DNA of 38,061 nt, from contig CAZJGF010000002.1 in the NCBI GenBank assembly GCA_964545665.1, forward strand, positions 1 through 38,061, read 5' to 3'. Numbering within the stretch: the first letter of the stretch is position 1; each line of letters begins with the position of its first letter. Source of the DNA: an uncultured Dehalococcoidales bacterium (GTDB lineage Bacteria > Chloroflexota > Dehalococcoidia > GIF9 > AB-539-J10). A program made the position numbers and the translations under genes. The notes under the pieces were generated by a model. That model was not told the DNA's origin. It was given only the letters and a program-made list of their open reading frames with translations, and ran no database searches. Positions 7,258-25,224 of this stretch are shown piece by piece.

Positions 7258-7261
7258 TGGT

Positions 7262-8789: not shown

Positions 8790-8795
8790 TTCAGT

Positions 8796-10265: not shown

Positions 10266-11242
10266 TTCATCCTCTTTCTTCTCAGTAGCGAAGATGGCAA
10301 GCTGAATCTGTAGAACGTACCCGCCGGGTCTACAATTTGATCAACTAGTTTTTGGACTTCTTCCTCTGTCATCTTCTCTTCGCCTTCAAGTCCCACTATG
10401 GAGGCGATTGCTGACAGTGCTTTCGCCCCTTGGTCTACAACCCCATCTACGGGACCAAAACAGCCCCGGCAGGGCATATTGGCTCTGATGCATGTTTCCC
10501 CACATCCCGAACGGGTGGCGGGGCCAAGGCAAATCAGTCCTTGCACCAGGAAGCATTTCTCAGGGTCGATTTTGATCTGCCACGGCCTTTTTACCGCTGC
10601 TATGGATAATTTCTCCGGTTTTGTCTCATTCCGTGGGCATGTATCGCACAGAGCTTTATTAGGGGCAAGCACCGCCCCTTTCTCCGGCAGATTCCCTGTG
10701 AGAATGGCATTGACAGCATCCATTACTAAATTGGGTGGTGGTGGACATCCGGGGAGGTAGTAATCTACAGGAATGGTTTGGTCCAATGTCTTTACCGTAT
10801 CATAGAATTCCGGTAAGGTAAGCTCACCAATTCCGATATCCGTCTTCTCTTGAGGAAGAGTTCCCTCTGGATTCTCAGTGGACGGAGTCTCTTTATAAGC
10901 TCGGCGAAAGATTGTATCCCTTGTCCAGAAATTCCCCAGTCCGGGTATCCCCCCTAGGTGAGCACAAGAACCAAAGGCGACCACAAGGCCGGATTTCTCC
11001 CTCAGGAGTTTTACCATCTCCTCTTGCTCTTCCAACCTTATGGCCCCGTTTATAAAGCTTACCGCTATCTCCTTATCGCCTAAAGCCTCAATGTCTTTCC
11101 TCTTGAAGTCCAAGGCTACGGGCCATAATACTATATCTACAGCATCCGCTACCTTCAGTATATCTTCATTGAGGTCAACCACTGTCTCTTCACATCCACC
11201 GCAGGAAGCGTTCCAATAGAAAGCAATCTTCGGTTTCGCCAT
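10262..11242 (-). CDS. mvhG: Mvh-type [NiFe]-hydrogenase small subunit
   Basis: I prefer the ATG at 11240-11242 (MAKPKIAFYWNASCGGCEE), with GGAG 8 nt upstream and lying after the mvhD stop. The track start at 11275 would overlap mvhD. No signal peptide. Multiple Fe-S Cys motifs (CPRNETKPEK..., CLGPATRSGCGETC, CRGCFGP). Confidence 0.8.
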   Translation of the reverse strand: MAKPKIAFYWNASCGGCEETVVDLNEDILKVADAVDIVLWPVALDFKRKDIEALGDKEIAVSFINGAIRLEEQEEMVKLLREKSGLVVAFGSCAHLGGIPGLGNFWTRDTIFRRAYKETPSTENPEGTLPQEKTDIGIGELTLPEFYDTVKTLDQTIPVDYYLPGCPPPPNLVMDAVNAILTGNLPEKGAVLAPNKALCDTCPRNETKPEKLSIAAVKRPWQIKIDPEKCFLVQGLICLGPATRSGCGETCIRANMPCRGCFGPVDGVVDQGAKALSAIASIVGLEGEEKMTEEEVQKLVDQIVDPAGTFYRFSLPSSLLRRKRMK

Positions 11243-11246
11243 ATTG

Positions 11247-11672
11247 TCATCTCCGATATGCTGTTTTACCAGCAAAAGGCCCTAGCTCTTTTATTTTCGC
11301 TGTCATGTCATTGGCTACCTGTGCGAAGTGGTTTGCCTCAGAGGCAGATATCCACTCTAGGCTTACTCGCTCCTCGTCAACCCCCAGTTGCTTCATCATT
11401 TTCTTCAGTATAGCAACACGCCGCGCTGCCTTATAGTTCCCCGTCCTGTAGTGGCAGTCTCCAAAATGGCAGCCGCCAATCAATACTCCATCTGCACCCG
11501 TCTGAAGGGCTGCAAGCACAAAGGTGGGCTCAACCATCCCACTGCACATAACTCGAACCACCATCAGATTGGAGGCATACTGAATACGCAACATACCAGC
11601 TAAATCAGCTCCAGCATAGGCACACCAATTGCATAGAAAGGCGACTATCTTCGGCTTGAAACCGCTCATCAT
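11247..11672 (-). CDS. mvhD: MvhD ([2Fe-2S] hydrogenase/Hdr adaptor subunit), copy 1
   Basis: 141 aa. FLCNWCAYAGADLAG, VMCSGMV, GGCHFGDCHY. GGAGG lies just upstream of the tandem ATGs (the second ATG at 11669 is possibly the real start). Confidence 0.85.
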   Translation of the reverse strand: MMSGFKPKIVAFLCNWCAYAGADLAGMLRIQYASNLMVVRVMCSGMVEPTFVLAALQTGADGVLIGGCHFGDCHYRTGNYKAARRVAILKKMMKQLGVDEERVSLEWISASEANHFAQVANDMTAKIKELGPFAGKTAYRR

Positions 11673-12170: not shown

Positions 12171-13277
12171 TTACCCGACGGCCGCGAATTCCTCCGGCCT
12201 GAATGTAGTAAGCGGGAGCCCCTCCTCCATATCTTTCCCTGGAAGATAACCATAAGCTTTCTGAACCGATTCGGCTACTCTCAAGGAAATGGCCCACAGC
12301 GGAATACTGGCGGGACACACATCAGAACACATACCACATCCCACACACGATGTGCTTACGTGGGATAGCCTCACCAGGTGGTAGAATATCGTGTCAGGAA
12401 AAGCCTCCACACTTCCCCTTCTTTCTAGCTGTGTTGCGTAGTAAACCGCATCATGTTCACTAGCCTCACTGTCGAAAAAGCATAAGTGGCAATAACAGAT
12501 GGGGCAGACCTTGCTGCAGTTGTGGCAGCCTATGCATTTGCTGAAGGCCTTGTTCAGTTCATCAATACCAAGGTTCCTTATTTCAGTTTCATCAAACAGT
12601 TTCTGCTTCTCACTCTCTCTCTGGCCCCTTATTCGTTCCATTGCTCCAGAATCGAACTCTTCTTCAGTGAACTCTCCCGACATACCTTCAAGCAAGTTCT
12701 CCCCTCTGTCAGTGTTGAGAAGTATCACCGTTTCTCTGTCAATGTCCTTGTTTCCCAGTAAGGACACGGTGATATCAGCAGTGTAAGGTATAAAATGCTC
12801 ACATGCCTTACAGGCAGGCCTTATCCCAGGACTCACTTCACCTTGTTTGACCGCTTCCCAGTATTGAGGTAGCTTTTCCTCAATCTTATCCTCGAGTGCC
12901 AGTTCCAATGGGTAGACTCCGCCACAGGTTGAGCTTATGAGTAACAGGTTGTCAGTGCTCCCCTGCTGCCGCTTCACCAGCTCTACGAATGCTCTTAATT
13001 CGCAAGGTCTTAGCACCACCGCAATCGGTTCAGTGGCTGCTTCCCTTAGAGTAAGAAGGGATAGCAACTTGCCGCTGTTTACCGGCATTAGAGGATACAG
13101 CGGCCGGGCATAGTCGAGTTCATCAGGACTGGAAATAAGGGAGTAAGCCACAGCCCCATTCTCACCGATCTTCCTCAAAGTCAAAACCCCTTCCACCTTG
13201 CCGTTCTCTAGGAGGAATTTGGCCATTTCTTTCACGCTTTGCTCTGGGCTTTCGCTCAACCTTAAGACCCTAGGCAT
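12171..13277 (-). CDS. Fe-S protein of the FlxB/FlxC / AsrA / sulfhydrogenase-beta (HydB) type
   Basis: The track ORF extends to 13343, but the ATG at 13275-13277 has AAGGAG 7 nt upstream and overlaps the upstream stop by 8 nt (ATGCCTAG). Motifs: VVLRPCELRAFVELVK, CIGCHNCSKVCPICYCHLCFFD, CVGCGMCSDVCPASIP. The family name is from memory. Confidence 0.55.
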   Translation of the reverse strand: MPRVLRLSESPEQSVKEMAKFLLENGKVEGVLTLRKIGENGAVAYSLISSPDELDYARPLYPLMPVNSGKLLSLLTLREAATEPIAVVLRPCELRAFVELVKRQQGSTDNLLLISSTCGGVYPLELALEDKIEEKLPQYWEAVKQGEVSPGIRPACKACEHFIPYTADITVSLLGNKDIDRETVILLNTDRGENLLEGMSGEFTEEEFDSGAMERIRGQRESEKQKLFDETEIRNLGIDELNKAFSKCIGCHNCSKVCPICYCHLCFFDSEASEHDAVYYATQLERRGSVEAFPDTIFYHLVRLSHVSTSCVGCGMCSDVCPASIPLWAISLRVAESVQKAYGYLPGKDMEEGLPLTTFRPEEFAAVG

Positions 13278-14427
13278 CTTGCTTCTCCTTGGCAGAAAAC
13301 ACTGAATGGGACTGCTCCACCTCCTGGAATTCGCCTTGCTCAAAAGTCGTTAACGGCAGAGCTTCGTCTATACTCCTACCAGATAGGTAACCGAAGGCCT
13401 CTTGGTTTCTATCACCAACTAGGCTGAAGATTTGCCCTACCGTGATATTCATGGGGCAGGCGTCCTCACACATCCCGCATGACACACAGGAGAGAGACAT
13501 ATGTAACATACGTCCAATATGGAAAAACAGAGTATCGCTGGGAAGCTTCACCACACCTCTTGCCTTTGCCCTCGTAAGGTAATCTTCAAAATTGAATTTC
13601 ATTTTGTCCGAATCGAAATGACACTGGCGGCAGTAACATATGGGGCAGACCCTCATACAGTTGTGGCAGTTTATGCATCTACTAAAGCTTTCTAGTAGCC
13701 TGTCTATACCCTCAATCTCGCTTCTTAGCCCGTTGTGAGACTCGTTCCTTTTCTGCTTTCTTTCCTGAGTCAGCCTCTCCACTCCACTTTCCCAACTCGA
13801 TATATTGTCCTCCATTGAAAGACCGAGCTTGCTCAAGACACTTTCGCCTTTACCGCTGCTGGGGATAAGGACCATAGTGCCATCCTTTGCACCCAAGGTT
13901 CCTACATGCAAGTCTTCAGCACCCGTGGTAGAGAATCTGTCACATATGTTGCACACTGGCCGCATAGGTTCACTATTCCAGTTCCGGGAAGCATCTCTGA
14001 ACGTCCTATCACCGTTTTCGGCGCTCGTGAAATAGTCAGATAGAGGCATTACTCCCGGGCAGTCCACAGTCACAAGGATTATGTCCTCCAGGTTTGCCTG
14101 TCCAAGCTTAGCCAGTTCAACTGTCGCCCTTGCCTCGCAGGGTCGCATCACAGCAGCAATGCTCTTGTTCCCTTTACCACGTCTGGTAATGCTAGAAATG
14201 GCTCTGGCTCCCTGAACTGGCATAATTGGAGGTAACGGAGACGCTGCTTCAAGAAGCGCCTCATCTCGGATCAGTGAGTAGGCGACTGAATCTCCTGCCG
14301 ACACCCTAGTTGGGATGAGGACAGCGTCAAAACAACCTTGGCTTAATGCTTGCTTCATAAAGTCAAGGACCCCTCTTTCCACATCCCCTTCTGACAGGTA
14401 GATTGTTCCCTTCCGAGTAGGTGTCAC
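13270..14427 (-). CDS. Fe-S protein of the FlxB/FlxC / AsrA / HydB-beta type (paralogue of 12171-13277)
   Basis: Motifs AAVMRPCEARATVELAKLGQ, CINCHNCMRVCPICYCRQCHFD, CVSCGMCEDACPMNI. GAGGAG lies 7 nt upstream of the GTG at 14425-14427; the alternative GTG start at 14442 is the one used by the track. Confidence 0.55.
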   Translation of the reverse strand: MTPTRKGTIYLSEGDVERGVLDFMKQALSQGCFDAVLIPTRVSAGDSVAYSLIRDEALLEAASPLPPIMPVQGARAISSITRRGKGNKSIAAVMRPCEARATVELAKLGQANLEDIILVTVDCPGVMPLSDYFTSAENGDRTFRDASRNWNSEPMRPVCNICDRFSTTGAEDLHVGTLGAKDGTMVLIPSSGKGESVLSKLGLSMEDNISSWESGVERLTQERKQKRNESHNGLRSEIEGIDRLLESFSRCINCHNCMRVCPICYCRQCHFDSDKMKFNFEDYLTRAKARGVVKLPSDTLFFHIGRMLHMSLSCVSCGMCEDACPMNITVGQIFSLVGDRNQEAFGYLSGRSIDEALPLTTFEQGEFQEVEQSHSVFSAKEKQDA

Positions 14428-14476
14428 GTTACAACTCCTCACATGTTCCCAATAGTTTGCTCATAAGCCCACATAC

Positions 14477-16174
14477 TTACCTTACTAGTTCCACAACTTC
14501 TTGATAGATCTGCGGGAAGCCAAAATTCTTTACACTGGCAGCTCCAGAGGGACAAGTAGCAGCACAGACCCCGCATCCATGACACAAAGCTTCGTTCACC
14601 ACTGCAATTCTCCTCACTTCGTCAAAGCTGATGGCAGAGTAAGGGCAGACTGAGATACACATTTTGCATCCAGTGCAGAAAGTCTCCGAAATTTCAGAGG
14701 TTCTCACTTCCAACTCCAACTTTCGGCCTGGAACAAGGGATGAGAGTATCTTACCTGCTGCTGCCTCTGATTGAACTATCGTCTCCGAGATATTCTTTGG
14801 CCCCTGGGCACACCCGACCACAAATACTCCCTCCACAGAAGACGCCACTGGACCCAGCAACTGGTGCTCTGCAACAGGGAAACCCTCCTCGTCCAGAGGG
14901 ATACCAAGCATTTCAGCGAACCTATTAGTATCACCGCTGGGTTCCATCGCCGGCACAAGGATTACCATATCTACTGCAAGCTCCTCTTCCGAACCGTTTT
15001 CAGTTTCGTATTTCACAGCTATTGCCTTGGTATTTTGGGTAACCGTAGTCTTCGCAGCGCGTACAAAGTTGATCCCTAAGTCCTTTGTCTCTTCGTAGAA
15101 CTTCTGGTAGGACTTCCCTGGAATGCATAGGTCTGAGTAGAGTTGAGATACCTTTACGTCGGGAAGCTGGGACTTCAACATCCTGGCAAATTTAAGTGAA
15201 TACACGCAGCACACCTTGGAACAATAGCCCTTCTCTTCTCGCCCAACACAATGGATAATAGCCACAGATTCAGGACTCTTGCCGTTTTTGAGCAGAATCT
15301 TCCCCCCACTAGGTCCGCTTGGCATATTCATCTGCTCAAATTCCAAGCTCGTATAGACATCATCACGCTTTCCGTACCCATATTGAGGGAGACCCGTTGG
15401 GTCCATCAAGTCGAAGCCGGTAGCTAAGATGACTGCTCCCACGCTTAGATTCCGCTCCCCATTTTCCCCTTTCTTCGTTACTTTTGCCTCAAAATTGCCA
15501 AAGAAGCCCAAGATTTGCTCAACCTCACTATCAGTAAGCTCTTCGATATTCTTGGCTCCTAGCAGTCTCTTCACTTCTTTTTCTATCAATACTGAGCCAG
15601 AATCCATAGCGGTAAACAGCTTGTCAAACTCCTTTACTTTGCCTCCCAAAGAAGGACTCTTCTCAACCAGATAGACCCTTCTGTCTGGGGAACCAAGCAG
15701 CTGGCTAGCCTTAATTCCGGCAATGCCACCGCCGATTATCAGCACATCGGGACAAACGTCCATCTCCTTCTTTTCCAGAGAAACTTGCCAGCGAACTCTA
15801 CTGATAGCGGCTCTTATTTGCCTTATTGCCTTTTCTGCAGCCTCTTCCTTGTCTGAGGTGACCCAGGCACATTGTTCCCTGATATTCACCATCTGCAATA
15901 GGTAGGGGTTGAGACTAGCTTCCTCACACACATTCATAAAAGTCATTTCGTGCTGCTTAGGAGAACAGGCTGCAAGCACCAAATGGGTCAAGTCATGCTC
16001 CTTGATGCTTTGCTTTAGGAATTCCTTCCCAGCCTCAGAACACAAGAGCCCGTATTTCTCGACAATTGCGACATCACGAAGCGGCGAAACAGCTTCAATT
16101 ACTCTATCAATATTCACATTGTCGGCTATATTAGTGCCACACTCGCATACATATACGCCTATCCTTTTTCCCAT
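14477..16174 (-). CDS. hdrA: HdrA-like flavoprotein: N-terminal [4Fe-4S] domain + TrxR-like FAD fold + C-terminal 2x[4Fe-4S] ferredoxin, but no inserted ferredoxin domain
   Basis: 565 aa. IGVYVCECGTNIA, VLIIGGGIAGIKAS, IIHCVGREEKGYCSKVCC, C-terminal CTGCKMCISVCP...CHGCGVCAATCP. The segment where HdrA normally has TFPTNDC..C plus the inserted ferredoxin is replaced by Cys-free sequence. Confidence 0.8.
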   Translation of the reverse strand: MGKRIGVYVCECGTNIADNVNIDRVIEAVSPLRDVAIVEKYGLLCSEAGKEFLKQSIKEHDLTHLVLAACSPKQHEMTFMNVCEEASLNPYLLQMVNIREQCAWVTSDKEEAAEKAIRQIRAAISRVRWQVSLEKKEMDVCPDVLIIGGGIAGIKASQLLGSPDRRVYLVEKSPSLGGKVKEFDKLFTAMDSGSVLIEKEVKRLLGAKNIEELTDSEVEQILGFFGNFEAKVTKKGENGERNLSVGAVILATGFDLMDPTGLPQYGYGKRDDVYTSLEFEQMNMPSGPSGGKILLKNGKSPESVAIIHCVGREEKGYCSKVCCVYSLKFARMLKSQLPDVKVSQLYSDLCIPGKSYQKFYEETKDLGINFVRAAKTTVTQNTKAIAVKYETENGSEEELAVDMVILVPAMEPSGDTNRFAEMLGIPLDEEGFPVAEHQLLGPVASSVEGVFVVGCAQGPKNISETIVQSEAAAGKILSSLVPGRKLELEVRTSEISETFCTGCKMCISVCPYSAISFDEVRRIAVVNEALCHGCGVCAATCPSGAASVKNFGFPQIYQEVVELVR

Positions 16175-16185
16175 TTCGCAACCTC

Positions 16186-17466
16186 TTATCTTGACAATGA
16201 TAGTAGTCTTCCCACTGCAGCCTCTGCCTGAGCCACTGTGTCTGGAATATCTTTGGGCCCCTGGGCGCAGCCGGCAACAAATATACCCTCTCTTATTGTA
16301 TCGACAGAATCAAGGTCTGGTTCCTTTTCGCTGAAAAAGCCCCCGTCACCTTGGGGAATACCCAACATCTCCGCCAGTTCCAATGAGTCGACCGCCGGTT
16401 CTAGTCCAGGTGACAAGATTATCATGCTCACACTGAGAGTATTCTCCTTGCCATCTTCAGTCTTGTAGTTAACACGCAGTCTCTCCCCTGATTCCGAGAC
16501 TTCGGTTACCGTGGCGCGAATAAAATCAACGCCGCTTTCTCGCACCTCTCTATAGAACCTCTGATAGGCTCTGCCTGGTATAGACAGATCAGAGTAGAAT
16601 TGAGATATCTTTACTTCGGGTAACTTATCCTTAATGAAGCGTGCTAGCTTGGCGGAAGACATGCAACATACTGAAGAACAATACCCCTTTTCCTCCCGCC
16701 CCACGCAATGGATGATCGCCACTGACTCTGGTGCTTTGCCATTGCGGAGAACAATCTGCCCCTGCGTAGGTCCATTGGAGGCACAAATTCTCTCAACTTC
16801 TATGTCAGAGTATACATTGTCAAATTTCTTGTACCCATATTGAGTAATCTTGCTGAGGTCAAGCGGTTTGAAGCCAGTAGCTACCAAGATACCCCCAACG
16901 TTAAGTTCGAGTTTCTCATCCTCCTGCGCGTAATCAATAGCCTCAAACATACAGGCTTCTTGACAGGCCTGGCAATCTTTCCCATTGAAACGGAGACAAT
17001 TTTGAGTATCAATGGCCGGGACGTTGGGCAGAGCCCCAGCACAGGGAATATATATTGCCTTTCTCTTGGTCAGTCCCTCCTCAAATTCGTTGTCCACCTC
17101 CACCGGGCAGGGCTCAAGACAGGCGTTGCATCCAATGCAGTTCTGCATGTCGACATACCTCGCCCTTTTCTTCACTTTCACCGTGAAATCCCCTATGGAA
17201 CCTTCCACAGCCTCAACCTGACTAAGCGTTAGCAGCTCAATGTTCTCATTTTGCAGCAACTCCTGTTGCTTCGGCGCTATCATACAGGTGGCACACTCCA
17301 TGTTAGGAAATACCTGCTCGAACTTTATTACGTTGCCACCAAAGTAACAGTTCTTCTCAACTAGATATACTTTGGCCCCAGAATTGGCCAGAAGCAGACT
17401 TGCTTCAATGCCAGCAATCCCAGCCCCAATCACCAGCACCCGCCTGTCCTCTCCCTTGTTTTCCAT
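16186..17466 (-). CDS. hdrA: HdrA core flavoprotein with inserted ferredoxin domain, lacking the N-terminal Cys domain and the C-terminal ferredoxin
   Basis: 426 aa. VLVIGAGIAGIEAS, FPNMECATCMIAPK, CIGCNACLEPCPV ... CQACQEAC, IIHCVGREEKGYCSSVCC, GIFVAGCAQGPKDIPD. Confidence 0.8.
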   Translation of the reverse strand: MENKGEDRRVLVIGAGIAGIEASLLLANSGAKVYLVEKNCYFGGNVIKFEQVFPNMECATCMIAPKQQELLQNENIELLTLSQVEAVEGSIGDFTVKVKKRARYVDMQNCIGCNACLEPCPVEVDNEFEEGLTKRKAIYIPCAGALPNVPAIDTQNCLRFNGKDCQACQEACMFEAIDYAQEDEKLELNVGGILVATGFKPLDLSKITQYGYKKFDNVYSDIEVERICASNGPTQGQIVLRNGKAPESVAIIHCVGREEKGYCSSVCCMSSAKLARFIKDKLPEVKISQFYSDLSIPGRAYQRFYREVRESGVDFIRATVTEVSESGERLRVNYKTEDGKENTLSVSMIILSPGLEPAVDSLELAEMLGIPQGDGGFFSEKEPDLDSVDTIREGIFVAGCAQGPKDIPDTVAQAEAAVGRLLSLSR

Positions 17467-17490
17467 TATTACCTGTTACCTCCGTCGCTC

Positions 17491-17925
17491 TCATAATAGG
17501 GCCTTTCCCAAGCGACTTGGCCCCAACTTTCTTACCTGCTCGGCAAACCGGTTAGTTACCTCAGCAAACCTCTGCCCTTCTGATGCTGAAACCCAGGCTA
17601 GCATAAACCTTTCCGGTTCCAGTCCCAGCGTTTCCACCGTTTTCTCCAAAAGAGCAAACCTACGGCGAGCATAGTAATTTCCCTCTCGGTAGTGGCAATC
17701 GCCTGGGTGGCACCCAGCAACAAATACCCCGTCAGCCCCCCGTAGGTATGCAGTAGCCATGAGAGCCGGCTCCACCCTTCCAGAGCACATTACTTTGATA
17801 ATCGAAACGGAACCAGGCACCGTTTGCTTCGTTGCCCCAGCAAGGTCAGCAGCCGCATATGAGCACCAGTTGCAGAGGAACCCAACTATCTTGGGTGTGA
17901 ATTCTCCCTCCATGGATATGCCCAC
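17491..17925 (-). CDS. mvhD: MvhD, copy 2
   Basis: 144 aa. FLCNWCSYAAADLAG, VMCSGRV, AGCHPGDCHY. Start uncertain (GTG at 17925 or ATG at 17913). Confidence 0.85.
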   Translation of the reverse strand: MGISMEGEFTPKIVGFLCNWCSYAAADLAGATKQTVPGSVSIIKVMCSGRVEPALMATAYLRGADGVFVAGCHPGDCHYREGNYYARRRFALLEKTVETLGLEPERFMLAWVSASEGQRFAEVTNRFAEQVRKLGPSRLGKALL

Positions 17926-17928
17926 AAA

Positions 17929-18153
17929 CTAGAACTGTATCTGTGCCTTGAACTTTCCTCCCCCCTGGTCAGCGCAGAACAGCAATGTCTTTTTCATCCT
18001 GGCACACCATGCTTCAATATCCTTGGGGAAAGACTCACAATCAGCCAGCACTTCTAATGTATCTCCAGCGGGAATACTCTTGGCCATCGCTGCCACTTTC
18101 AGTACCGGCTGGGGACACTTAAGTCCCAGTACATCCAAAGTGTGTAGTGCCAT
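17929..18153 (-). CDS. tusA: TusA/SirA-family sulfurtransferase
   Basis: Conserved LGLKCPQPVLKV (Cys-Pro-x-Pro) motif. The ATG at 18151-18153 has AGGAGG 5 nt upstream (the track starts at GTG 18159). 74 aa. Confidence 0.8.
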   Translation of the reverse strand: MALHTLDVLGLKCPQPVLKVAAMAKSIPAGDTLEVLADCESFPKDIEAWCARMKKTLLFCADQGGGKFKAQIQF

Positions 18154-18176
18154 GTTCACCTCCTAATTATTTCAGT

Positions 18177-18530
18177 TTAGAAAGAGAAAGTTATGGTGGC
18201 GTCTGATATCGAGGCCAAAAACGTAGTTGCCCCGACAATTTCCACGCCCTCCCTAAAGTCATCGGCTTTAAGGTCCTTGGCATCTAAGGCTAGCTCACAG
18301 ACTAGAATTCGGCCACCCAGATCACGTAGGCCCTGGTATAATTCCACAATGTCCGGCATGCCCTTGGCCTTGATTTTCTCCAACTCGCCTTTCACCATGG
18401 CAGGCGCACCCCCGGGACAGAAAAACACGATCACATCATCGCCGAGGGATGCGGCAGACGAACCGAGAATCATACTTGGGAAAACATTACTGGGTGCGGA
18501 ACCGTTAACTGTAATCGCTACCTTGGCCAT
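18177..18530 (-). CDS. DsrE/DsrF-family (DsrE-like) small sulfur-relay protein
   Basis: 117 aa with size and pattern of DsrE-like proteins (MAKVAITVNG..., FFCPGGAP, ILVCELAL). GGAGG SD. 17 nt upstream of tusA. Confidence 0.6.
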   Translation of the reverse strand: MAKVAITVNGSAPSNVFPSMILGSSAASLGDDVIVFFCPGGAPAMVKGELEKIKAKGMPDIVELYQGLRDLGGRILVCELALDAKDLKADDFREGVEIVGATTFLASISDATITFSF

Positions 18531-18634
18531 GATTCACCTCCTTTCTTGCGCTACAACTTGGAACAGGTACAGTGCTTTATTTGCCTGCCGCTGCTTCCAT
18601 AGCTCTCCACCAGCGGCAAATGTTGGTCGCAGGC

Positions 18635-19066
18635 TCAGAGCCCATTTCGCCTCCTATTAAGTGGGCTGGGGCCAAGTCCCCTTACCGTTTCAGTGAAGCT
18701 CCTGACTGTCTCAGCGAACTTTGGTCCTTCTGAAGCCCCTATCCATTCCAGTCTCAGTCTCTCAGGTTGGATCCCCACCGCCCCAAGGAAAGGCTTCATG
18801 GCCACAAACCTTCTACTGGTGCTCAGGTTACCCTTCATATAATGACAGTCGCCAGGATGACAGCCGGCAACTAGAACACCATCCGCCCCGGCAGCAAACG
18901 CCTTAAATATTAACATGTCGCTGACTCTGCCGGAACACATCACCCTTACCGTCCTCAAGTTTGCCGGATACTGCATCCGTGAGGTACCGGCCAGGTCCGC
19001 AGCGGCATAGGCGCACCAGTTGCAGCAAAAGCCAATGATCACGGGCTCAAAGTCATCCCGGTTCAC
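18635..19066 (-). CDS. mvhD: MvhD, copy 3
   Basis: 143 aa. FCCNWCAYAAADLAG, VMCSGRV, AGCHPGDCHY. GTG start with GGAGG 8 nt upstream. Overlaps the upstream hdrA stop by 14 nt. Confidence 0.85.
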   Translation of the reverse strand: MNRDDFEPVIIGFCCNWCAYAAADLAGTSRMQYPANLRTVRVMCSGRVSDMLIFKAFAAGADGVLVAGCHPGDCHYMKGNLSTSRRFVAMKPFLGAVGIQPERLRLEWIGASEGPKFAETVRSFTETVRGLGPSPLNRRRNGL

Positions 19067-20780
19067 CTATCACGCCTCCTTTCGACTCAACAAACGCTTC
19101 ATTATACCACGGTGCCTCAAGTTGCGCCATAATCTCCTCATTCCTGAAATGATTCATAGTAACGGCACCAGAAGGGCAAGCGGCTCCACAAACTCCACAA
19201 CCCTTACATTGAGCCACGGTGACCCGTGCTACTCTTTTGCCATCTTTGGGCACGAGTTCCATGGCTTCAAATGGGCAAAGAGAAACGCACGTGCCACATC
19301 CTGAGCAGATATCCTCATTAACCGAGGAAGTTATGGCTTCAGGCCTTACATAGCCTGTTCTCAATGGCCCCGCTGCTTTAGAGGCGGCTGCGTAAGCCTG
19401 AGAAATTCCTTCACTCACATCCGTGGGCCACTTTGCAGAGCCACAGATGTAAATACCATCCATAGCAAATTCCACAGGCCGGAGTTTCAAATGTGCTTCC
19501 AGTAAGAAACCAAACTCGTCTAACGAAACTCTAAGCATCTTGGATATTCCCTGGTTATCTTCGCGAGGGATAAGAGGCGTGGTGAGAACAAGCATATCGC
19601 AGGAAAGCTCTAGCTCCGTCTTACGTAGCTCATGGTATACCCTTATTTTCTCAACCTTCCCATTCCCAATGACTTCAGGAGGCCTTTCCAAGCTGTATCT
19701 AATGAATCTAACCCCCCGCTCCATAGCCCCTCGATAGTAATTCTCAAAATCTACACCATAAGTCATAAGGTCACGGTGCAATATCCAGACTTTCGCCCCG
19801 GGGTTTGATTCTTTTATAAGAAAAGCATTCTTAATTGCATTCATGCAGCAGATTCTGCTGCAGTAAGTTCTCTCTGGAACGCGAGCCCCAACACAGTTAA
19901 TCATTACCACGTTCTTGCCCACGGCCTCTCCGTTTTTCATCCGCTCCTCTAGCTCCAGTTGAGTGAGAACGTCAGGCATTTCACCATAGCCGTATTGACC
20001 TATTGGCTTTAATTCCTGAGCTCCAATGGCTACTATGATGGTGCCTACGTTGAACTTACTCTCCTTTCCGTCTTGATCCACAGTGACGTCGAAGTTCCCT
20101 ATGAATCCAGCCACCTCTTTAACCTTAGAAGAAAGATAGGTTTTGATCTTAGAATGATTTTCAACTTTTTCAGCGATTGGATTGGTCAACTTTGTTGCCT
20201 CTTCATTTGTGGGGTAAAGTTTATGAACATTTCGGAGGATCCCCCCAAGCTGTGATTGCTTTTCCACCAAATGGACATCGAACCCTTGCTGTGCCAAATT
20301 CAAGGCGGCACTCATACCTACAACTCCGCCGCCAATCACTAAGGCTGAAGGGGCTACCTTGATCTCCACCTCCTCCAGTGGCTCAAGTAATCTTGCCTTC
20401 GCAACCCCCATTCTGATGAGGTCTTTAGCCTTTTCCGTAGCCTTCTCTGGCTCATTCATATGAACCCAGCTACATTGATCCCTTATATTGACAAACTCAA
20501 AAAGGTATTTGTTTAAGCCCGCTGCTTCACAGGCAGACCTGAAGAGCGGCTCATGGGTTCTAGGTGTGCAAGAGGCGACTATAACACGGTTCAAGCTATA
20601 CTCTTGAATTCCCTTCTTAATCGCTGATATCCCTTCTTCAGAACAGGTATATAGATTATGCTCAGCATGCACCACATTGGGCAGTCCCTTTACATACTCA
20701 ACAACCTCTGGGACATCGACATATGCCCCGATATTCCTGCCACAATGACAGACAAAGACACCAATGCGAGGCTCGTCCAT
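19053..20780 (-). CDS. hdrA: HdrA-like flavoprotein, same subtype as 14477-16174 (N-domain + FAD fold + C-terminal ferredoxin, no inserted ferredoxin)
   Basis: 575 aa. IGVFVCHCGRNIG, ALVIGGGVVGMSAA, INCVGARVPERTYCSRICC, CSGCGTCVSLCP...CKGCGVCGAACP. GGAGG SD. Confidence 0.8.
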   Translation of the reverse strand: MDEPRIGVFVCHCGRNIGAYVDVPEVVEYVKGLPNVVHAEHNLYTCSEEGISAIKKGIQEYSLNRVIVASCTPRTHEPLFRSACEAAGLNKYLFEFVNIRDQCSWVHMNEPEKATEKAKDLIRMGVAKARLLEPLEEVEIKVAPSALVIGGGVVGMSAALNLAQQGFDVHLVEKQSQLGGILRNVHKLYPTNEEATKLTNPIAEKVENHSKIKTYLSSKVKEVAGFIGNFDVTVDQDGKESKFNVGTIIVAIGAQELKPIGQYGYGEMPDVLTQLELEERMKNGEAVGKNVVMINCVGARVPERTYCSRICCMNAIKNAFLIKESNPGAKVWILHRDLMTYGVDFENYYRGAMERGVRFIRYSLERPPEVIGNGKVEKIRVYHELRKTELELSCDMLVLTTPLIPREDNQGISKMLRVSLDEFGFLLEAHLKLRPVEFAMDGIYICGSAKWPTDVSEGISQAYAAASKAAGPLRTGYVRPEAITSSVNEDICSGCGTCVSLCPFEAMELVPKDGKRVARVTVAQCKGCGVCGAACPSGAVTMNHFRNEEIMAQLEAPWYNEAFVESKGGVIGEPG

Positions 20781-20781: not shown

Positions 20782-22209
20782 TCACCCTCCTCCTGCTATA
20801 ACTTCCGCTACCCTGCCTGCCGCTCCTGACGCCTGGGTTACAGAATCAGGTATATCTCGTGGACTGTGGACATAGCCACAAGCAAAGATGCCGGGCTTTG
20901 TAGTATCCAGCGGTTGCGAAAGCTTATCTGGAGTCCTCACAAAGCCATTTTCGTCCAACTCTATTCCTAGTATTTCTGCTAACTCTTTGGTGATTCGGGG
21001 GACCATCGCTTGCGCCAGAACCACCAGTTCTGCCTCAAATCTTTTTATTCCCCCGGTGGTGGTATCCTCATACCAAATAACAGGGTTATCATTCTCGGAG
21101 TTGACTTCAATCCTGCCAGGACGCCCCCTGATATACGTCACGTTATATTCCTGTTTAGCCCTAACGATATATTCCTGAAATCTCTTGCCTACAGCCCTCA
21201 TGTCCATATAGAGAATTGTGGACTTCGTTCCTGGCTCATGTTCATATGCCATCATGGCTTCCTTGGTGGCATGCATGCAGCAGACGCTGGAACAATATGC
21301 TTTGTTCCTAAGATCGCGGGAGCCAACGCATTGGATGAAGGCTATATTGTGAGGGATTTTCCCATCTGAAGGGCGCTTAAGTGCTCCAAAAGTAGGACCT
21401 GATGCCGCAGTCAGTCTCTCGTATTCTATGGCAGTAATGACATTCTTTATCTTTCCATAGCCATATTCTTCCATTTGTGAGATGTCGTAGAAATCTAAGC
21501 CGGTAGCAACTATTATGGCGTCAACGTCGCGATCCAGGACCTGATCAGTCATGTCATGAACAATTGCCTTCGCTTCACAAGCGTTTTCACACCCCTTACA
21601 TTCAAGCTTCTCTGTGAGTCTCAAGCAGTGATTGGCGTCTCTGACGTTTTTCTTAGGCACTGCTTGAGGGAAAGGTAGATAGATTGCCTTCCTTGGAGAT
21701 AAACCAAGGTTAAACTCGTCGGGCACCAGGATAGGGCAAACATTTATCCTTTTGATAGCATCCTTTTGGCACTTTTCTATGCATTTCCAGCAACCAGTGC
21801 AATCCAAGCCATCGTATATCGGCTTCTCACAGTTACATTCTTCCGCTTGTTCCGTAGAACAGGTTACGCCTATGGAAACCAAGCCATCTCTCCTAAGAAC
21901 ACCAAGTTCTTCAAGTTTATCTAAAGCCCTGTCGTCACATCCTCTGGAGACAACTCCAAACCTTTTCTCAGGCCACTTATCCTTAATTTTACGAACGAAA
22001 GTTGCCAGGTTATATCGTGGCTCAAGTTCCAGCTCCTTAAGCTCCTCCTTTTGGGTGAAGAGATAAGGGCCTACATGTCCCCATCTTCTTCGAAGCCCAA
22101 TGATGCCATCGTAACCGTGGTCTAGAATTTCCTCGGCTGCGGCTATTATTCCCCCCTTATCCAGAATCCTCTCTGCTTCCCCTACTATTCTTTCTCCCTT
22201 CTCAGCCAT
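20782..22209 (-). CDS. Chimera: N-terminal half of a FlxB/AsrA-type protein fused to the C-terminal half of HdrA (inserted ferredoxin onward)
   Basis: 475 aa. The first ~130 aa (FGVVSRGCDDRALDKLEELGVLRRDGLVSIGVTC) parallel the N-termini of ORFs 12171-13277 and 13270-14427. They are followed by CTGCWKCIEKC, CKGCENACEAKAI, ATGLDFYD, IQCVGSRDLRNKAYCSSVCC, GIFACGYVHSPRDIPD. There is no N-terminal GxGxxG FAD motif. Confidence 0.7.
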   Translation of the reverse strand: MAEKGERIVGEAERILDKGGIIAAAEEILDHGYDGIIGLRRRWGHVGPYLFTQKEELKELELEPRYNLATFVRKIKDKWPEKRFGVVSRGCDDRALDKLEELGVLRRDGLVSIGVTCSTEQAEECNCEKPIYDGLDCTGCWKCIEKCQKDAIKRINVCPILVPDEFNLGLSPRKAIYLPFPQAVPKKNVRDANHCLRLTEKLECKGCENACEAKAIVHDMTDQVLDRDVDAIIVATGLDFYDISQMEEYGYGKIKNVITAIEYERLTAASGPTFGALKRPSDGKIPHNIAFIQCVGSRDLRNKAYCSSVCCMHATKEAMMAYEHEPGTKSTILYMDMRAVGKRFQEYIVRAKQEYNVTYIRGRPGRIEVNSENDNPVIWYEDTTTGGIKRFEAELVVLAQAMVPRITKELAEILGIELDENGFVRTPDKLSQPLDTTKPGIFACGYVHSPRDIPDSVTQASGAAGRVAEVIAGGG

Positions 22210-24253
22210 GCTTGTCCCCCTTATAGATTTTCACAGCGCAAACTTTGAACTCAGGGATCTTGGCTTCAGGGTCAAGATTTCTGCTGGTAAGCTCATTGGC
22301 GGCACACTCAGCAAAGTGGAAAGGTATAAATACCACCCCAGGGGAAACTCGATCGGTAACGAAAGCCTTTATCTCAATCTCACCTCGCCGTGATTTCACC
22401 TGTACCTTTTCTCCTTGCACTATAGAGAGTCTCGCCGCGTCTTCAGGATTAAGTTCCACAAAGCCTGTAGAGGCTTCCCTTTCTAAGGCAGGGACTCTGC
22501 GAGTCATTGTCCCAGTATGAAATTGAAACATTACTCTGCCCGTGGTTAGAATGAAAGGATATTCCTCGTCAGGTAGCTCAGCGGGCTGTTCATAATCAAT
22601 GGCAAAGAAGCGTCCTTTTCCCCTGGCGAAGATTTCTTCATGAAGCAATTTGGTGCCGGGGTGTTCTTTGGACGGGCATGGCCAAGCTAACACCTCACCG
22701 CTATCCAATCGCTCGTAGGAAATGCCCCCATAGCTAGGGGTAAGATTCACGATTTCCTCCATAATGGCTTGAGGCGACTCATAATTGAATTGGGTGCTTC
22801 CCATTCTTCTGGCAAGCTCAGTGATTATGACCCAGTCAGGCTTGGAATCACCAATAGGCCCTATTGCCTTCCTTCCCCTTTGGACCCTTCTATCTGTTGC
22901 GGTAAAAGTCCCCTCTTTCTCAGCAAAGGAACAGGCAGGCAGCACCACATGGGCAAATTCGGCTGTATCAGAGAGGAAGCAATCCTGTACCACCAAGAAA
23001 TCAAGTTCACTTAGTGCTTTTCTCACGTGGTTTACATCAGGATCGGAAAGCACAGGATTTTCCCCCATTATATACATCGCCTTAAGCGATCCTTCTAGAG
23101 CAGCATCGATCATTTCGGTTACCGTGAGCCCTGGCTCTTGAGGCAATTCAACACCCCAAGCTTTTTCAAATTTGCCTCTGCTGGCTTCATCCCGAACTGA
23201 TTGATAGCCTGAGTAAACATTTGGCAGAGCACCCATGTCGCAGGCACCCTGAACATTGTTTTGTCCGCGCAGCGGATTCACCCCGGTTGACTTGCGGCCA
23301 ACGTTCCCAGTAAGCATCGCCAGATTGGCGCAAGATTCGACATTATCGGTACCGGTGGTATGTTGTGTGATACCCATAGCATATAGGATGCTTGCTTTTT
23401 CAGCTTCCCCATACCATCGAGCTGCCTTCTCCAGTGCAGCTCGGTCGACCCCCGTTATCTGGCAAACCTTTTCAGGCGAGTATTCTCCAACCTTCCTTTT
23501 GAATTCCTCGAACCCTTCAGTACGCCCAGCGATGAAATCATTATCAGCCAAATTCCAAGAAAGAATGAGGTTCATTATGCCATTAAGCAGGCAAACATCT
23601 GTTCCCGGCCTGTGCTGAAGATGGACGTCAGCAAACTCGACCAGTGGTATGCGGCGTGGGTCAGCCACAATCAGCTTGGCTCCCCTTTCCTTCGCCCGTA
23701 GAACCCTTGAGCTTACAAGAGGGTGCTGCTCCATGGTATTGCTTCCTATCACGAAAATACAGCCCGCTCCTTCTATTTCCGGAATGCTATTGGTCATTGC
23801 TCCACTACCAAAGGAGTTAACTAAGCCTAGCACTGTAGAGGCATGACAAAGTCGAGCACAATGATCAACGTTATTTGTGCCAATAACTGCCCGTGCGAAT
23901 TTCATCATGAGGAAATTTTCCTCATTGGTACACTTGGCAGACGAAAGGATACCTATGGAATCAGCTCCTTGCAGTTGCTTTATCTCGCTCAACCTCCCGC
24001 TCACAATTTCTAAGGCCTCATCCCAGCTTGTCTCTTCAAACTTACCATTTCTTCTTACCAAGGGTGATTTCAGCCGATCACGGTGGTAAATGAAGCCTGC
24101 TGCATTCCTTCCTTTGATACAGAGTTGGCCCCCGCTTACCTCGTCGGTTTTGCAGGGAACCACCCCAGTTATTTCACCGTCCAGAACCTCGAGGTAAAAC
24201 TGACAGCCACAGCCACAAAAAGGGCAAACGGTTAATACCAAGTCACAATTCAC
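22202..24253 (-). CDS. fdhA: Formate dehydrogenase catalytic subunit (Mo/W-bisPGD), cytoplasmic, Cys-type
   Basis: 683 aa. N-terminal [4Fe-4S] motif CPFCGCGCQF...C. Active-site region VDHCARLCHASTV has Cys (TGT, 23846-23848) where Sec-type enzymes have U. No signal peptide. GTG start with a 4-nt overlap with the upstream gene. Confidence 0.9.
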   Translation of the reverse strand: MNCDLVLTVCPFCGCGCQFYLEVLDGEITGVVPCKTDEVSGGQLCIKGRNAAGFIYHRDRLKSPLVRRNGKFEETSWDEALEIVSGRLSEIKQLQGADSIGILSSAKCTNEENFLMMKFARAVIGTNNVDHCARLCHASTVLGLVNSFGSGAMTNSIPEIEGAGCIFVIGSNTMEQHPLVSSRVLRAKERGAKLIVADPRRIPLVEFADVHLQHRPGTDVCLLNGIMNLILSWNLADNDFIAGRTEGFEEFKRKVGEYSPEKVCQITGVDRAALEKAARWYGEAEKASILYAMGITQHTTGTDNVESCANLAMLTGNVGRKSTGVNPLRGQNNVQGACDMGALPNVYSGYQSVRDEASRGKFEKAWGVELPQEPGLTVTEMIDAALEGSLKAMYIMGENPVLSDPDVNHVRKALSELDFLVVQDCFLSDTAEFAHVVLPACSFAEKEGTFTATDRRVQRGRKAIGPIGDSKPDWVIITELARRMGSTQFNYESPQAIMEEIVNLTPSYGGISYERLDSGEVLAWPCPSKEHPGTKLLHEEIFARGKGRFFAIDYEQPAELPDEEYPFILTTGRVMFQFHTGTMTRRVPALEREASTGFVELNPEDAARLSIVQGEKVQVKSRRGEIEIKAFVTDRVSPGVVFIPFHFAECAANELTSRNLDPEAKIPEFKVCAVKIYKGDKHG

Positions 24254-25224
24254 TTGCTTATCTCGGTCCCAACAACGGGCCGCTCCTTCACTCGCTCTAC
24301 AAGCTTGTTTTTTGTCTCTGGATCTAGACCTGGAATGATTTCAAAAATTGACTCAGGGGGTTGACGCTGCATAAGGTGATGGATAGTTCTGAGGGGTATG
24401 TCCACAGGACAAGTTTCTTCACACATGCCGCAGTTAATGCAGCTATCGCCAATGCGGTAAGCTCTTATTATGTGAAACAGGGGCACAGCGGGAGGTATTT
24501 CGCCGGGGGCAATCCACTCCGGGTCTTCCAGCTCAGTCTCACCGTAAATCCATACGGGGCAGACATCACAGCAGCCAAAGCACTTTATGCACTTGCTGAG
24601 TTCCTTCTGCCAGAAGTCTGCTCGTGACTCTTCGTCCATCAGGGCCACCCGCTGGGCCAATATCTCAGGCTCCCTTCCTTCTCGTTCCTCAGGAGGAAGT
24701 TCAACAAATCTTCGCCTCTCGAAGGCAACATTGGTCATGGCATGCCTTTCCTTGTTTTCCTCAACACAGGCCTGGGTGCATTCTCCGCACTGGACGCAAC
24801 TTGTCTCGTCTATTTTGATTCGGTCAACCCATATTTCCCCTTCAAACTCCTTCGAGCCATCTAACTCGGTCTGAGTGCACTCCCCGCACCCGGTGCATTT
24901 ATCCCAATCAACGTGTGTTGCCTTCCTCTTGACTTTGACATGGAAATTTCCTTCCTCTCCTGATACTCCCTCCACCTCGGAATAGGTCAAAAGCTCTATG
25001 TTAGGATGCTGGCTTGCCTCTATCATCTTGGGGGCAAGAATACACATAGCACAGTCATTAGTGGGGAAGGTCTTATCTAGCTGTGCCATCCTCCCCCCAA
25101 TACTGGGAGTCTTTTCCACCAAATACACCTTGAACCCCATATTAGCCAGATCGAGAGAAGCTTGAATCCCAGCTATCCCACCGCCAATCACCAAGACCGA
25201 TTTATGTTCATTTTCCCGGTTCAC
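24250..25224 (-). CDS. Chimera: N-terminal (FAD-binding) half of HdrA fused to the C-terminal Cys-rich half of a FlxB/AsrA-type protein
   Basis: 324 aa. VLVIGGGIAGIQASLDLANMGFKVYLVEK, TFPTNDCAMCILAPK, KCTGCGEC, then CVQCGECTQAC, CIKCFGCCDVCPVW, LFHIIRAYRIGDSCINCGMCEETCPVDIP. The latter part parallels CINCHNCMRVCPICYC...LFFHIGRMLHMSLSCVSCGMCEDACP of ORF 13270-14427. GTG start with a 4-nt overlap. Confidence 0.7.
   Translation of the reverse strand: MNRENEHKSVLVIGGGIAGIQASLDLANMGFKVYLVEKTPSIGGRMAQLDKTFPTNDCAMCILAPKMIEASQHPNIELLTYSEVEGVSGEEGNFHVKVKRKATHVDWDKCTGCGECTQTELDGSKEFEGEIWVDRIKIDETSCVQCGECTQACVEENKERHAMTNVAFERRRFVELPPEEREGREPEILAQRVALMDEESRADFWQKELSKCIKCFGCCDVCPVWIYGETELEDPEWIAPGEIPPAVPLFHIIRAYRIGDSCINCGMCEETCPVDIPLRTIHHLMQRQPPESIFEIIPGLDPETKNKLVERVKERPVVGTEISK

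Follow-up and report, generated by a model that had tools for sequence, protein, structure and literature searches.

A predicted TusA-like/DsrE-like sulfur-relay pair is integral to an eight-gene HdrA/MvhD/FdhB-like cassette of uncultured sediment bacteria and archaea

The 38,061-nucleotide (nt) stretch analyzed here, referred to below as the window (contig CAZJGF010000002.1 of assembly GCA_964545665.1, from an uncultured Dehalococcoidales bacterium), carries a long single array of minus-strand genes for CCG-domain proteins, an HdrL-like protein, FdhA, HdrA paralogues, hydrogenases, MetV/MetF and a DUF3786 protein. Embedded in this array, at 12171–19066, is an eight-gene cassette, in which the genes of a DsrE-like and a TusA-like protein, a putative sulfur-relay pair, stand among genes for HdrA, the flavoprotein of heterodisulfide reductase (Hdr), for MvhD, and for relatives of the formate dehydrogenase subunit FdhB. 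The cassette genes in their order of transcription, and the neighboring hydrogenase unit, are as follows.

18635–19066, minus strand: mvhD, leading copy (PF02662, E 1.7e-53).
18177–18530, minus strand: dsrE-like gene, 117 amino acids (aa); the matches to PF13686 (48.2 bits) and PF02635 (40 bits) exceed the gathering scores.
17929–18159 (open reading frame, ORF), minus strand: tusA-like gene (PF01206, 63.8 bits); contains LGLKCPQPV.
17491–17925, minus strand: mvhD, copy after tusA (PF02662, E 4.2e-51); five invariant Cys.
16186–17466, minus strand: hdrA′, 426 aa; matches positions 139–556 of NCBIfam HdrA2.
14477–16174, minus strand: hdrA, 565 aa; identified by NCBIfam and by alignment with 8rvv_A.
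13270–14442, minus strand: fdhB-like gene a, 390 aa; matches FdhB entries of the PDB; 16 invariant Cys.
12171–13343, minus strand: fdhB-like gene b; matches FdhB entries of the PDB; PF04432.
8796–11672, minus strand: mvhD-mvhG-mvhA, neighboring unit, identified by Pfam.

A sequence-only reading of this DNA had described the order mvhD-dsrE-like-tusA-mvhD with gaps of 17 nt and 3 nt around tusA, and both ORF coordinates and Pfam assignments agree with it as long as the listed ORF starts are used. The GTG of tusA at 18159, though, falls inside the Shine-Dalgarno sequence AGGAGGTGA, and the protein is 74 aa long in relatives, so that the true start of tusA is likely the ATG at 18153, which gives the same 74 aa and widens the dsrE-tusA gap to 23 nt. 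The dsrE-like gene itself is preceded by a strong Shine-Dalgarno sequence, AAGGAGGTGA, located 7 nt upstream of its start. The mvhD after tusA may start at the ATG at 17913 (140 aa, the length seen in relatives), and fdhB-like gene b likely starts at Met23, at 13277, a residue invariant in the alignment, which gives about 368 aa as in relatives. The leading mvhD overlaps by 14 nt with the end of an upstream hdrA (19053–20780), while a 498-nt gap with terminator-like hairpins (12074–12056 and 11948–11929) separates the cassette from the mvhD-mvhG-mvhA unit, the probable H2 input. As the promoter and terminator scans gave site counts no better than those of shuffled sequence, the operon boundaries are drawn from gaps and synteny only. 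Annotation also bore out the reductive surroundings noted in the same reading (HdrA, FdhA, HdrD-like CCG proteins, two [NiFe] hydrogenases, MetV/MetF) as well as its failure to see a dsr or lipoate-binding gene, which holds for all window ORFs of ≥100 aa; among the annotated ORFs of that size there was likewise no lipoyl or GcvH-type protein.

The TusA-like protein scored 63.8 bits on PF01206 against a gathering score of 28.6, and the active-site CPxP motif that had been read from the sequence (LKCPQP) is present as CPQP. Among the cassette-linked orthologues, Cys15 of the CPQP motif and Cys41 of an ADC motif were found in 62/62 and Cys62 in 59/62 (95%), and the position of E. coli TusA Cys56 kept a Cys in only 35/62. 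Cys15 aligns with Cys19 of E. coli TusA, and Cys41 with the second Cys of E. coli YedF (1je3, SDCPQS); by this alignment, the cassette protein is classified as a two-cysteine TusA. Assignment to the TusA, YedF or YeeD equivalogs was rejected, as the scores were 43 vs. 78, 27.2 vs. 79, and 20.6 vs. 147.5 bits, respectively (NCBIfam cut-offs).

For the DsrE-like protein, conservation of the active-site Cys was evaluated in an alignment of diverse members, in which Cys78 (VCELAL) was invariant in 23/23, so no loss of the Cys was seen, and Cys38 was not invariant. Cys78 aligns with the Cys of the Sulfolobus proteins 3mc3 (YVCVQSL) and 2qs7 (FACSTTM). The AlphaFold2 model (mean predicted local distance difference test score 91.5) adopts the alpha/beta fold of DsrE/YchN, with Cys78 at the end of strand 74–78 and before helix 80–84. 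In a Foldseek search with this model, the top match was 3mc3 (TM-score 0.83, E 6e-9), followed by 2qs7, 3pnx, 2hy5, and 1jx7, that is, the two Sulfolobus proteins fit best and DsrEFH and YchN come next. Of these, 3mc3 is classed as DsrE3A-type and 2qs7 as DsrE2B-type, both homotrimers, and the DsrE and TusA families are known as sulfur transferases (PMC11094781). Taken together, the sequence and model data support the dsrE-like and tusA-like genes as encoding a genuine sulfur-relay pair.

The DsrE-like homologue search returned 437 clusters, the best 120 at about 67–96% identity, and the organism names attached to them were only those of metagenome-assembled genomes (MAGs) of Dehalococcoidia, WOR-3, Acidobacteriota, and Aminicenantes. 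An exhaustive HMMER scan of 1.84 billion representatives gave only 177 matches at E ≤ 1e-3, 37 at 1e-10, and 4 at 1e-30; because the matches are so few, the protein is taken to belong to a compact, well-separated DsrE subfamily. Membership in the DsrE2 equivalog (NCBIfam NF047629) was rejected, with 49.8 bits against a cut-off of 210 and a match to residues 45–114 only. Selenocysteine (Sec)-containing DsrE-like proteins carry a UxxC motif (PMC13188914), which is not present here, and this type was rejected too. No paralogue corresponding to the DsrEFH/TusBCD partners (DsrF/DsrH, TusC/TusB) was found in the window or the loci, each cassette holding a single dsrE-like gene.

To define what accompanies this pair, loci with a DsrE-like gene were collected from genomes and metagenomes. 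About 100 loci were found to hold the cassette, in the order (mvhD)-dsrE-tusA-mvhD-hdrA′-hdrA-fdhB-like-fdhB-like-(mvhD); they come exclusively from MAGs or metagenome contigs and include Dehalococcoidales, Aminicenantes, WOR-3, and Thermoplasmatota. A scan of one genome per GTDB species contributed 74 loci, all from MAGs, which belong to Dehalococcoidales, Aminicenantes, WOR-3, Cloacimonadota, Neomarinimicrobiota, Fidelibacterota, Zixibacteria, Thermotogae, Planctomycetia, and Thermoplasmatota archaea; the ORFs of these loci were each assigned to their best match among the proteins of the window. Among the 73 genome loci with a DsrE-like gene, tusA was adjacent in 63, an hdrA-like gene lay within 6 kb in 61, an mvhD within 3 kb in 54, and both fdhB-like genes were present in 40, the rest being mostly cut by contig ends; mvhGA adjoined in 11. 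A reverse scan of metagenomes, started from fdhB-like gene b, the last gene of the cassette, gave 80 loci at ≥52% identity, and dsrE and tusA were present in 30/30 of those in which hdrA′ was full-length and ≥1.3 kb of upstream sequence was available. These forward and reverse tests rejected the possibility that dsrE-tusA is an independent unit unrelated to hdr, and the two genes are integral, obligate members of the cassette.

Contigs with a 96%-identical DsrE-like protein repeat the entire arrangement of the window, and the closest contigs came from sediment metagenomes, including a data set from a sulfate-methane transition zone. The closest GTDB relatives of the cassette are Dehalococcoidales MAGs (77–79% identity). 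In Aminicenantes contigs (74% identity), the order was dsrE-tusA-mvhD-hdrA(422 aa)-hdrA(563 aa)-Fer4 protein(395 aa)-FrhB/FdhB-like(370 aa)-mvhD, and no further Hdr, Fdh or hydrogenase (Mvh) genes were found near the cassette. Since the same order recurs in close relatives at 96% identity and the cassette recurs across phyla, the mvhD-dsrE-tusA-mvhD arrangement is far beyond chance. Median identities to the window proteins were 73% for TusA, 69% for the DsrE-like protein, 68% for MvhD, 62% and 59% for the two HdrAs, and 53–54% for the FdhB-like proteins, which makes the DsrE-like protein and TusA the most conserved proteins of the cassette. In a literature search combining TusA, DsrE, HdrA, MvhD, and FrhB, of incomplete coverage, no description of the cassette was found, and the eight-gene HdrA/MvhD/FdhB-like cassette has apparently not been described before.

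The flanking mvhD copies follow a rule of their own. The number of short mvhD genes is exactly two in all complete cassettes, and one of them always comes after tusA. In form A (33 loci), the second copy trails the last gene and none leads, while in form B (20 loci, including Dehalococcoidales-like relatives), it leads dsrE and no short copy trails; three further loci, in which the gap is wider, probably belong to form B as well. Form B is seen in the window and in the Dehalococcoidales MAGs that are its closest GTDB relatives. The mvhD "sandwich" around dsrE-tusA is thus a conserved permutation. The idea that the upstream mvhD belongs to the preceding HdrA module was dropped, because two short mvhD genes with one leading or trailing occur in every complete cassette, which makes mvhD 18635–19066 a cassette member.

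The two HdrA proteins of the cassette match methanogen HdrA (8rvv_A, 5odc_A) at E values of 1e-92 to 1e-117, and divide it between them. In detail, HdrA′ covers positions 140–556 of 8rvv_A, and HdrA covers 2–235 and 310–638. An FAD domain is common to both; HdrA′ has the inserted ferredoxin domain and a CxxC (Cys58, Cys61) aligned with the DCSMC motif, both lacking in HdrA, while HdrA has the N-terminal domain with its Cys and the C-terminal 2x[4Fe-4S] ferredoxin domain, both lacking in HdrA′. The invariant Cys sets of the two are complementary as well. These complementary domains argue for pairing, so that HdrA′ and HdrA probably form a heterodimer. The fdhB-like proteins b and a matched the beta subunits of F420-type formate dehydrogenases, including 9t1s_M (8.2e-40 and 5.8e-28, respectively), 8rvu_E, and 7bkb_E. 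All Cys motifs of the FdhB-like proteins are invariant and the same as in FdhB of the solved Fdh-Hdr complexes, and by this likeness the FdhB-like subunits may physically bridge to MvhD/HdrA.

Both cassette HdrAs also carry a Cys in the FAD motif G-C-A-x-G-P (79/82 and 73/74 in loci L005–L161), at Cys400 of HdrA′ (16267–16269) and Cys455 of HdrA (14810–14812); the position is Val in methanogen HdrA and Thr in the HdrBC-linked variant described below. A role of this Cys as catalytic thiol was considered and not adopted. Going by the GD motif in related flavoproteins, we assume that the position probably contacts the FAD ribityl and not the isoalloxazine.

None of the cassette members is a CCG-domain (HdrB/D) protein. 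The constant partners of dsrE-tusA in the cassette are HdrA′, HdrA, two MvhD and two FdhB-like proteins; FdhA was absent from it in nearly all loci, and HdrL/MvhD modules with CCG proteins accompanied it in only about 10–15% of loci. As the cassette is without HdrBC, the two carriers are the only remaining encoded candidates for a thiol/sulfur partner. From these gene contents, we suggest that the dsrE-tusA pair may present protein-bound sulfane sulfur or a disulfide as the redox substrate to the HdrA heterodimer complex, a reading that is favored here with a confidence slightly below even.

The window does encode two CCG proteins elsewhere. They have a Fer4 and two CCG domains each and are located 6–12 kb upstream of the cassette at 25221–26375 and 30186–31334. 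Between them lies a 1122-aa HdrA fusion with a GltD/NfnB-like module (26799–30167, minus strand; HdrL-like), which is flanked by these HdrD-like proteins and an mvhD (26372–26830); the group at 25221–31334 is an Hdr module separate from the cassette. The sequence-only reading had raised the possibility that such CCG (HdrD-like) subunits act on a persulfide or trisulfide borne by TusA/DsrE. Its notion of a persulfide carrier stood in so far as the data support a genuine sulfur-relay pair linked to Hdr genes, but not in the choice of the CCG subunits as partners. In that explanation, the two window proteins would reduce the TusA/DsrE-borne persulfide or trisulfide in trans, as HdrB does with CoM-S-S-CoB and DsrK with the DsrC trisulfide. 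Their position in the same strand-continuous gene array speaks for it, and so do Fidelibacterota- and Cloacimonadota-type loci, where dsrE-tusA comes directly before hdrA-mvhD, hdrC, and a CCG-domain hdrB. Yet no CCG gene belongs to the conserved cassette, only about 10/73 genome loci and a few metagenome loci have HdrC/D-like genes within 10 kb, the Aminicenantes cassette stands alone among unrelated genes, and each CCG gene of the window is paired with its own HdrL/MvhD or HdrA-N/FdhA module. For the window, action of the CCG proteins on the pair is thus held to be unlikely.

The variant was found in Fidelibacterota, Cloacimonadota, and Neomarinimicrobiota. In loci L040, L045, L052, and L056 (Fidelibacterota, Cloacimonadota, and unclassified MAGs), dsrE-tusA is followed by the gene of an HdrA-MvhD fusion (about 800 aa) and those of an HdrC-like and a CCG-domain HdrB protein, and the loci continue with mvhG, mvhA, and another hdrCBA set. 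HdrB/HdrC were in the same unit as dsrE-tusA only in such loci (L040, L052). Because dsrE-tusA is linked there to hdrA-mvhD, hdrC, hdrB(CCG), and mvhGA, CCG-subunit action is plausible for the variant in these three lineages. HdrA and MvhD are common to all Hdr contexts of dsrE-tusA.

Links to sulfur import were frequent in the relatives. A module of tusA2 (one-Cys), yeeE (PF04143), and a two-domain rhodanese gene was embedded between hdrA and fdhB-like gene a in at least 13 loci (L094:6351–8758, L100, L102, L109, L128, L142, and others), and the same trio lay upstream of the cassette in Thermoplasmatota-like loci and downstream in others; overall, a YeeE-type gene was present in 36 loci. DsrE-like members outside hdr contexts occurred with TusA, a PF04143 YeeE/YedE-type transporter, and rhodaneses (L011, L044, L061, L078), and that of L011 is the second DsrE-like copy in a Dehalococcoidia MAG that also carries the cassette. 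In a Thermoplasmatota MAG, a diverged DsrE-like/TusA pair adjoins a 745-aa protein (L075:6245–8482) in which a CoA-disulfide-reductase-like flavoprotein is fused to a rhodanese and two TusA domains. Many form-B cassettes are directly followed by a 347–392-aa polyferredoxin-MvhD fusion and metV (L094:11347–13169, L115:11348–13170, and others), which connects the cassette of these relatives with methylene-tetrahydrofolate reductase genes.

Sulfur delivered by rhodanese, TusA, and DsrE could also be oxidized by the Hdr-like complex, in an sHdr-like direction that would yield reductant for CO2 fixation. Such a reading is consistent with the only related remark found in the literature, in which Hdr genes of one Cloacimonadota MAG cluster with a thiosulfate sulfurtransferase, TusA, and a sulfur transporter and were interpreted as sulfur oxidation (Williams et al., 2021, PMC8542988), and with the TusA and DsrE3-type proteins that accompany sHdr systems (PMC11094781). 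The defining genes of the latter, however (shdrC1B1AHC2B2 or shdrB3-etfAB-emo, plus LbpA; PMC11094781), are absent from both cassette and window, there is no obvious site for the oxygen-atom chemistry that leads to sulfite, and the neighbors are an H2-oxidizing Mvh hydrogenase, FdhA, and MetVF, an anaerobic Wood-Ljungdahl setting. An oxidative direction therefore seems decidedly improbable.

The pair might instead serve biosynthesis or maturation, by supplying sulfur or selenium for iron-sulfur clusters, for the Mo/W sulfido ligand of FdhA, or for selenoprotein metabolism. E. coli TusA acts in molybdenum cofactor (Moco) and thiolation pathways. In its second Cys, the cassette TusA agrees with YedF, a selenium-metabolism protein by its NCBIfam name; MoaA and a MoaC-MOSC fusion are encoded at the left end of the window, and NifU_N genes lie near the cassette in 9 loci. 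The linkage, though, is to HdrA′, HdrA, MvhD, and FdhB-like proteins and not to FdhA, and a Moco-sulfuration or FdhD-like role tied to FdhA was rejected, FdhA being outside the conserved cassette. Moreover, the other iron-sulfur-rich modules of the window are without such a pair, YedF is matched at 27 bits where the cut-off is 79, the FdhA, HdrA paralogues, and MvhD of the window read through with no in-frame stops and no sign of Sec, and the embedded importer and rhodanese modules suggest flux over trace supply. We regard this role as just as improbable as the oxidative one.

Unbiased clustering of the remaining neighbor genes brought out two regulator families that flank the cassette in relatives. 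A CsoR/RcnR-family (PF02583) gene is divergent from form-B cassettes in at least 18 loci (such as L013:9063–9356 and L116:3740–4063); its product has a conserved Cys pair 29 residues apart, and a Tyr at the position that we take to be the copper-ligand His of CsoR. In form A, an ArsR-family (PF01022) gene, also with a conserved Cys pair, is located directly upstream of dsrE (L036:5475–5747, L053:9663–9956). The CsoR and ArsR families include the persulfide sensors CstR and SqrR/BigR, respectively, and the flanking regulators are offered as a lead, namely as candidate sulfane-sulfur sensors. Together with the JGI label of the DsrE-like family, "predicted peroxiredoxin", these Cys-pair regulators could point to a regulatory or protective role, in which the pair senses or buffers reactive sulfane sulfur and gates or protects the flavin/iron-sulfur complex with no substrate turnover. 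This is judged very unlikely, given that dedicated regulators are already present, that no other part of the cassette is as well conserved as the pair, which is stoichiometrically encoded and has good ribosome-binding sites, and that DsrE and TusA are families of known sulfur transferases (PMC11094781).

The oxidative, maturation, and regulatory explanations, as well as the one invoking CCG proteins, were less well supported than the reading of the pair as a redox substrate of the HdrA complex, in which the reaction would run as follows. Sulfane sulfur would be loaded as a persulfide on Cys78 of the DsrE-like protein and Cys15 of TusA, in many relatives after arrival through the embedded YeeE-type importer, rhodanese, and one-Cys TusA2. 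Cys41 of TusA may then resolve the Cys15 persulfide to an intramolecular disulfide or trisulfide plus H2S, in a DsrC-like manner. By homology with the Fdh-MvhD-HdrA assemblies of methanogens, the FdhB-like/MvhD units may pass electrons to the HdrA flavin, the donor being either the FdhB-like flavin site itself or the neighboring Mvh hydrogenase or FdhA. The ferredoxin domains of HdrA would serve the low-potential branch (ferredoxin), while the HdrA complex would re-reduce the carrier, with protein-bound sulfur in the role that CoM-S-S-CoB has in methanogens. What the sequence data show is that the pair belongs to the cassette and is obligately linked with it, that the active-site Cys is conserved, and that the family is repeatedly found with sulfur-import genes; reduction as the direction of the reaction, electron bifurcation, the subunit that contacts the carrier, and the disulfide step are our inferences.

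In its fullest form, the proposal is that two-Cys TusA and the DsrE-like protein are the physiological thiol/sulfur redox partner of HdrA-type bifurcating complexes in non-methanogenic anaerobes (Dehalococcoidia, Aminicenantes, Thermoplasmatota, Cloacimonadota, and others), that is, a protein-borne "heterodisulfide equivalent", which is reduced directly by HdrA′/HdrA/FdhB-like proteins in the CCG-less cassette. This is advanced as a tentative and rather doubtful hypothesis.

Several points weigh against the redox-substrate reading. The case is built from genes, all relatives being MAGs or metagenome contigs, and the locus counts include related contigs that are not independent events. Neither the YeeE/rhodanese importer module nor the flanking regulators are in the window. 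No known S-S-reducing subunit, neither a CCG/HdrB protein nor a CxxC flavoprotein disulfide reductase, is found among the cassette proteins, and the CxxC of HdrA′ corresponds to the methanogen DCSMC motif, of which at least one Cys is presumably an iron-sulfur cluster ligand, not part of a free redox pair. In addition, persulfide reduction is a less favorable high-potential acceptor than CoM-S-S-CoB. Finally, since an mvhD-polyferredoxin fusion and metV come after many cassettes, and MetV/MetF are encoded downstream in the window, methylene-tetrahydrofolate reduction could be the real or main high-potential sink, with the carriers in another role.

Other features of the window were recorded as well. 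Tandem [NiFe] hydrogenases are encoded at 5229–11672 (minus strand), each followed by its own HycI-type maturation protease, in the order mvhD-mvhG-mvhA-hycI and then small subunit-large subunit-hycI. At the left end, the minus strand encodes two MetV paralogues (3762–4493 and 4585–5235), MetF (2804–3733), and the DUF3786 protein (2131–2847), and the plus strand MoaA (178–1146) and the MoaC-MOSC fusion (1143–2081). Upstream of the cassette, at 20782–25224 (minus strand), an HdrA is seemingly split around FdhA: its N-part (24250–25224), with the FAD Rossmann fold and the ferredoxin insert, lies upstream of a full-length, Cys-type FdhA (22202–24253), and its C-part is formed by residues 140–474 of a 475-aa protein encoded after FdhA (20782–22209). 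These genes overlap by 4 and 8 nt, and the arrangement is kept at 92–94% in close relatives. Beyond the upstream end of the Hdr array, the gene at 32820–35060 (minus strand) encodes a response-regulator receiver domain joined to a GltD/NfnB-like NAD(P)H oxidoreductase that has a C-terminal 2x[4Fe-4S] domain; a second receiver-domain protein adjoins it (31742–32770, minus strand). A 367-aa protein at 35662–36765 (minus strand) has Sigma54_DBD as its only domain and is not a full RpoN; hundreds of homologues share 70–99% identity with it, some labeled "transposase" by JGI, and a 75%-identical one was found in a Dehalococcoidia MAG.

HdrA/MvhD modules are widespread in non-methanogenic anaerobes, where CoM-S-S-CoB, the high-potential substrate of the methanogen enzymes, is not made. 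In at least eight phylum-level lineages of sediment microbes, the cassette keeps two small, readily expressed Cys carriers in obligate genetic linkage with a probable HdrA heterodimer. This makes protein-bound sulfur a candidate, open to testing in vitro, for what serves Hdr-type enzymes as the "heterodisulfide" outside methanogens. If the proposal is true, direct carrier reduction with no CCG protein would be a new catalytic solution for Hdr-type enzymes, and imported sulfane sulfur or thiosulfate would be coupled to ferredoxin reduction for the Wood-Ljungdahl pathway. Abundant uncultured bacteria and archaea of sediments could in this way, so far overlooked, link the turnover of zero-valent sulfur or thiosulfate to hydrogen, formate, and acetogenic carbon metabolism. 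As a natural HdrA system without HdrBC, the cassette is also of use for explaining the rewiring of flavin-based bifurcation modules.

Compared with known systems, the cassette stands nearest to the sHdr-LbpA pathway with its TusA/DsrE3 cascade, as described for Hyphomicrobium, Aquifex, and Acidithiobacillus (PMC11094781). Both couple an Hdr-type flavo-iron-sulfur complex to TusA and a single-domain DsrE3-like carrier, often with rhodanese and YeeE-type importers nearby. Membership in sHdr was nevertheless rejected, as neither the type I (shdrC1B1AHC2B2) nor the type II (shdrC1B1AHB3-etfAB-emo) core is in the cassette, which has no sHdrB1/B2/C1/C2 (CCG), LbpA or lipoate ligases, and has instead two HdrA paralogues, two MvhD, and two FdhB-like proteins in a strictly anaerobic context with Mvh hydrogenase, FdhA, and MetVF. 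The cassette TusA further differs by its extra invariant Cys and by Gln as the X of CPXP, vs. Leu/Ile reported for sulfur oxidizers.

With the methanogen complexes HdrABC-MvhAGD and Fdh-MvhD-HdrABC(-Fmd) (5odc, 7bkb, 8rvu, 9t1s), the cassette shares homologous HdrA, MvhD, and FdhB, and their FdhB-MvhD-HdrA electron-input chain is a structural template for it. It departs from them in that HdrA is divided over two complementary paralogues, with neither HdrBC nor FdhA in the cassette, and in that it encodes two protein sulfur carriers, in lineages where CoM-S-S-CoB is not expected. The HdrA paralogue pair recalls QmoA/QmoB of sulfate reducers, and HdrA-type flavoproteins and MvhD adjoin metV/metF as in MetFV-HdrABC-MvhD of acetogens (Moorella), but the cassette is without HdrBC, QmoC, and AprAB, and TusA/DsrE are foreign to those systems.

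On the sulfur side, PF04143 transporters and TusA-like proteins in or beside many cassettes resemble YeeE/YeeD (TsuA/TsuB) thiosulfate uptake and YedE/YedF, and the second Cys position is common to YedF and the cassette TusA. In contrast, the window has no transporter, and the cassette TusA scores below the TusA, YedF, and YeeD cut-offs; we know of no coupling of YeeE/YeeD or YedE/YedF to an HdrA complex. The YTD cluster of sulfur disproportionators, as cited in PMC13490349, similarly combines a YedE-type transporter with TusA and a DsrE-like protein, while its DsrE-like protein and two further proteins make up a DsrEFH-type, Dsr-linked complex, and these extra genes are absent here. DsrC and DsrMK(JOP), the "bacterial heterodisulfide" system, offer the parallel of a small two-Cys sulfur carrier with proposed re-reduction by an Hdr-related enzyme, although the DsrC fold differs, its partner DsrK is a CCG protein, and no dsr gene is in the window.

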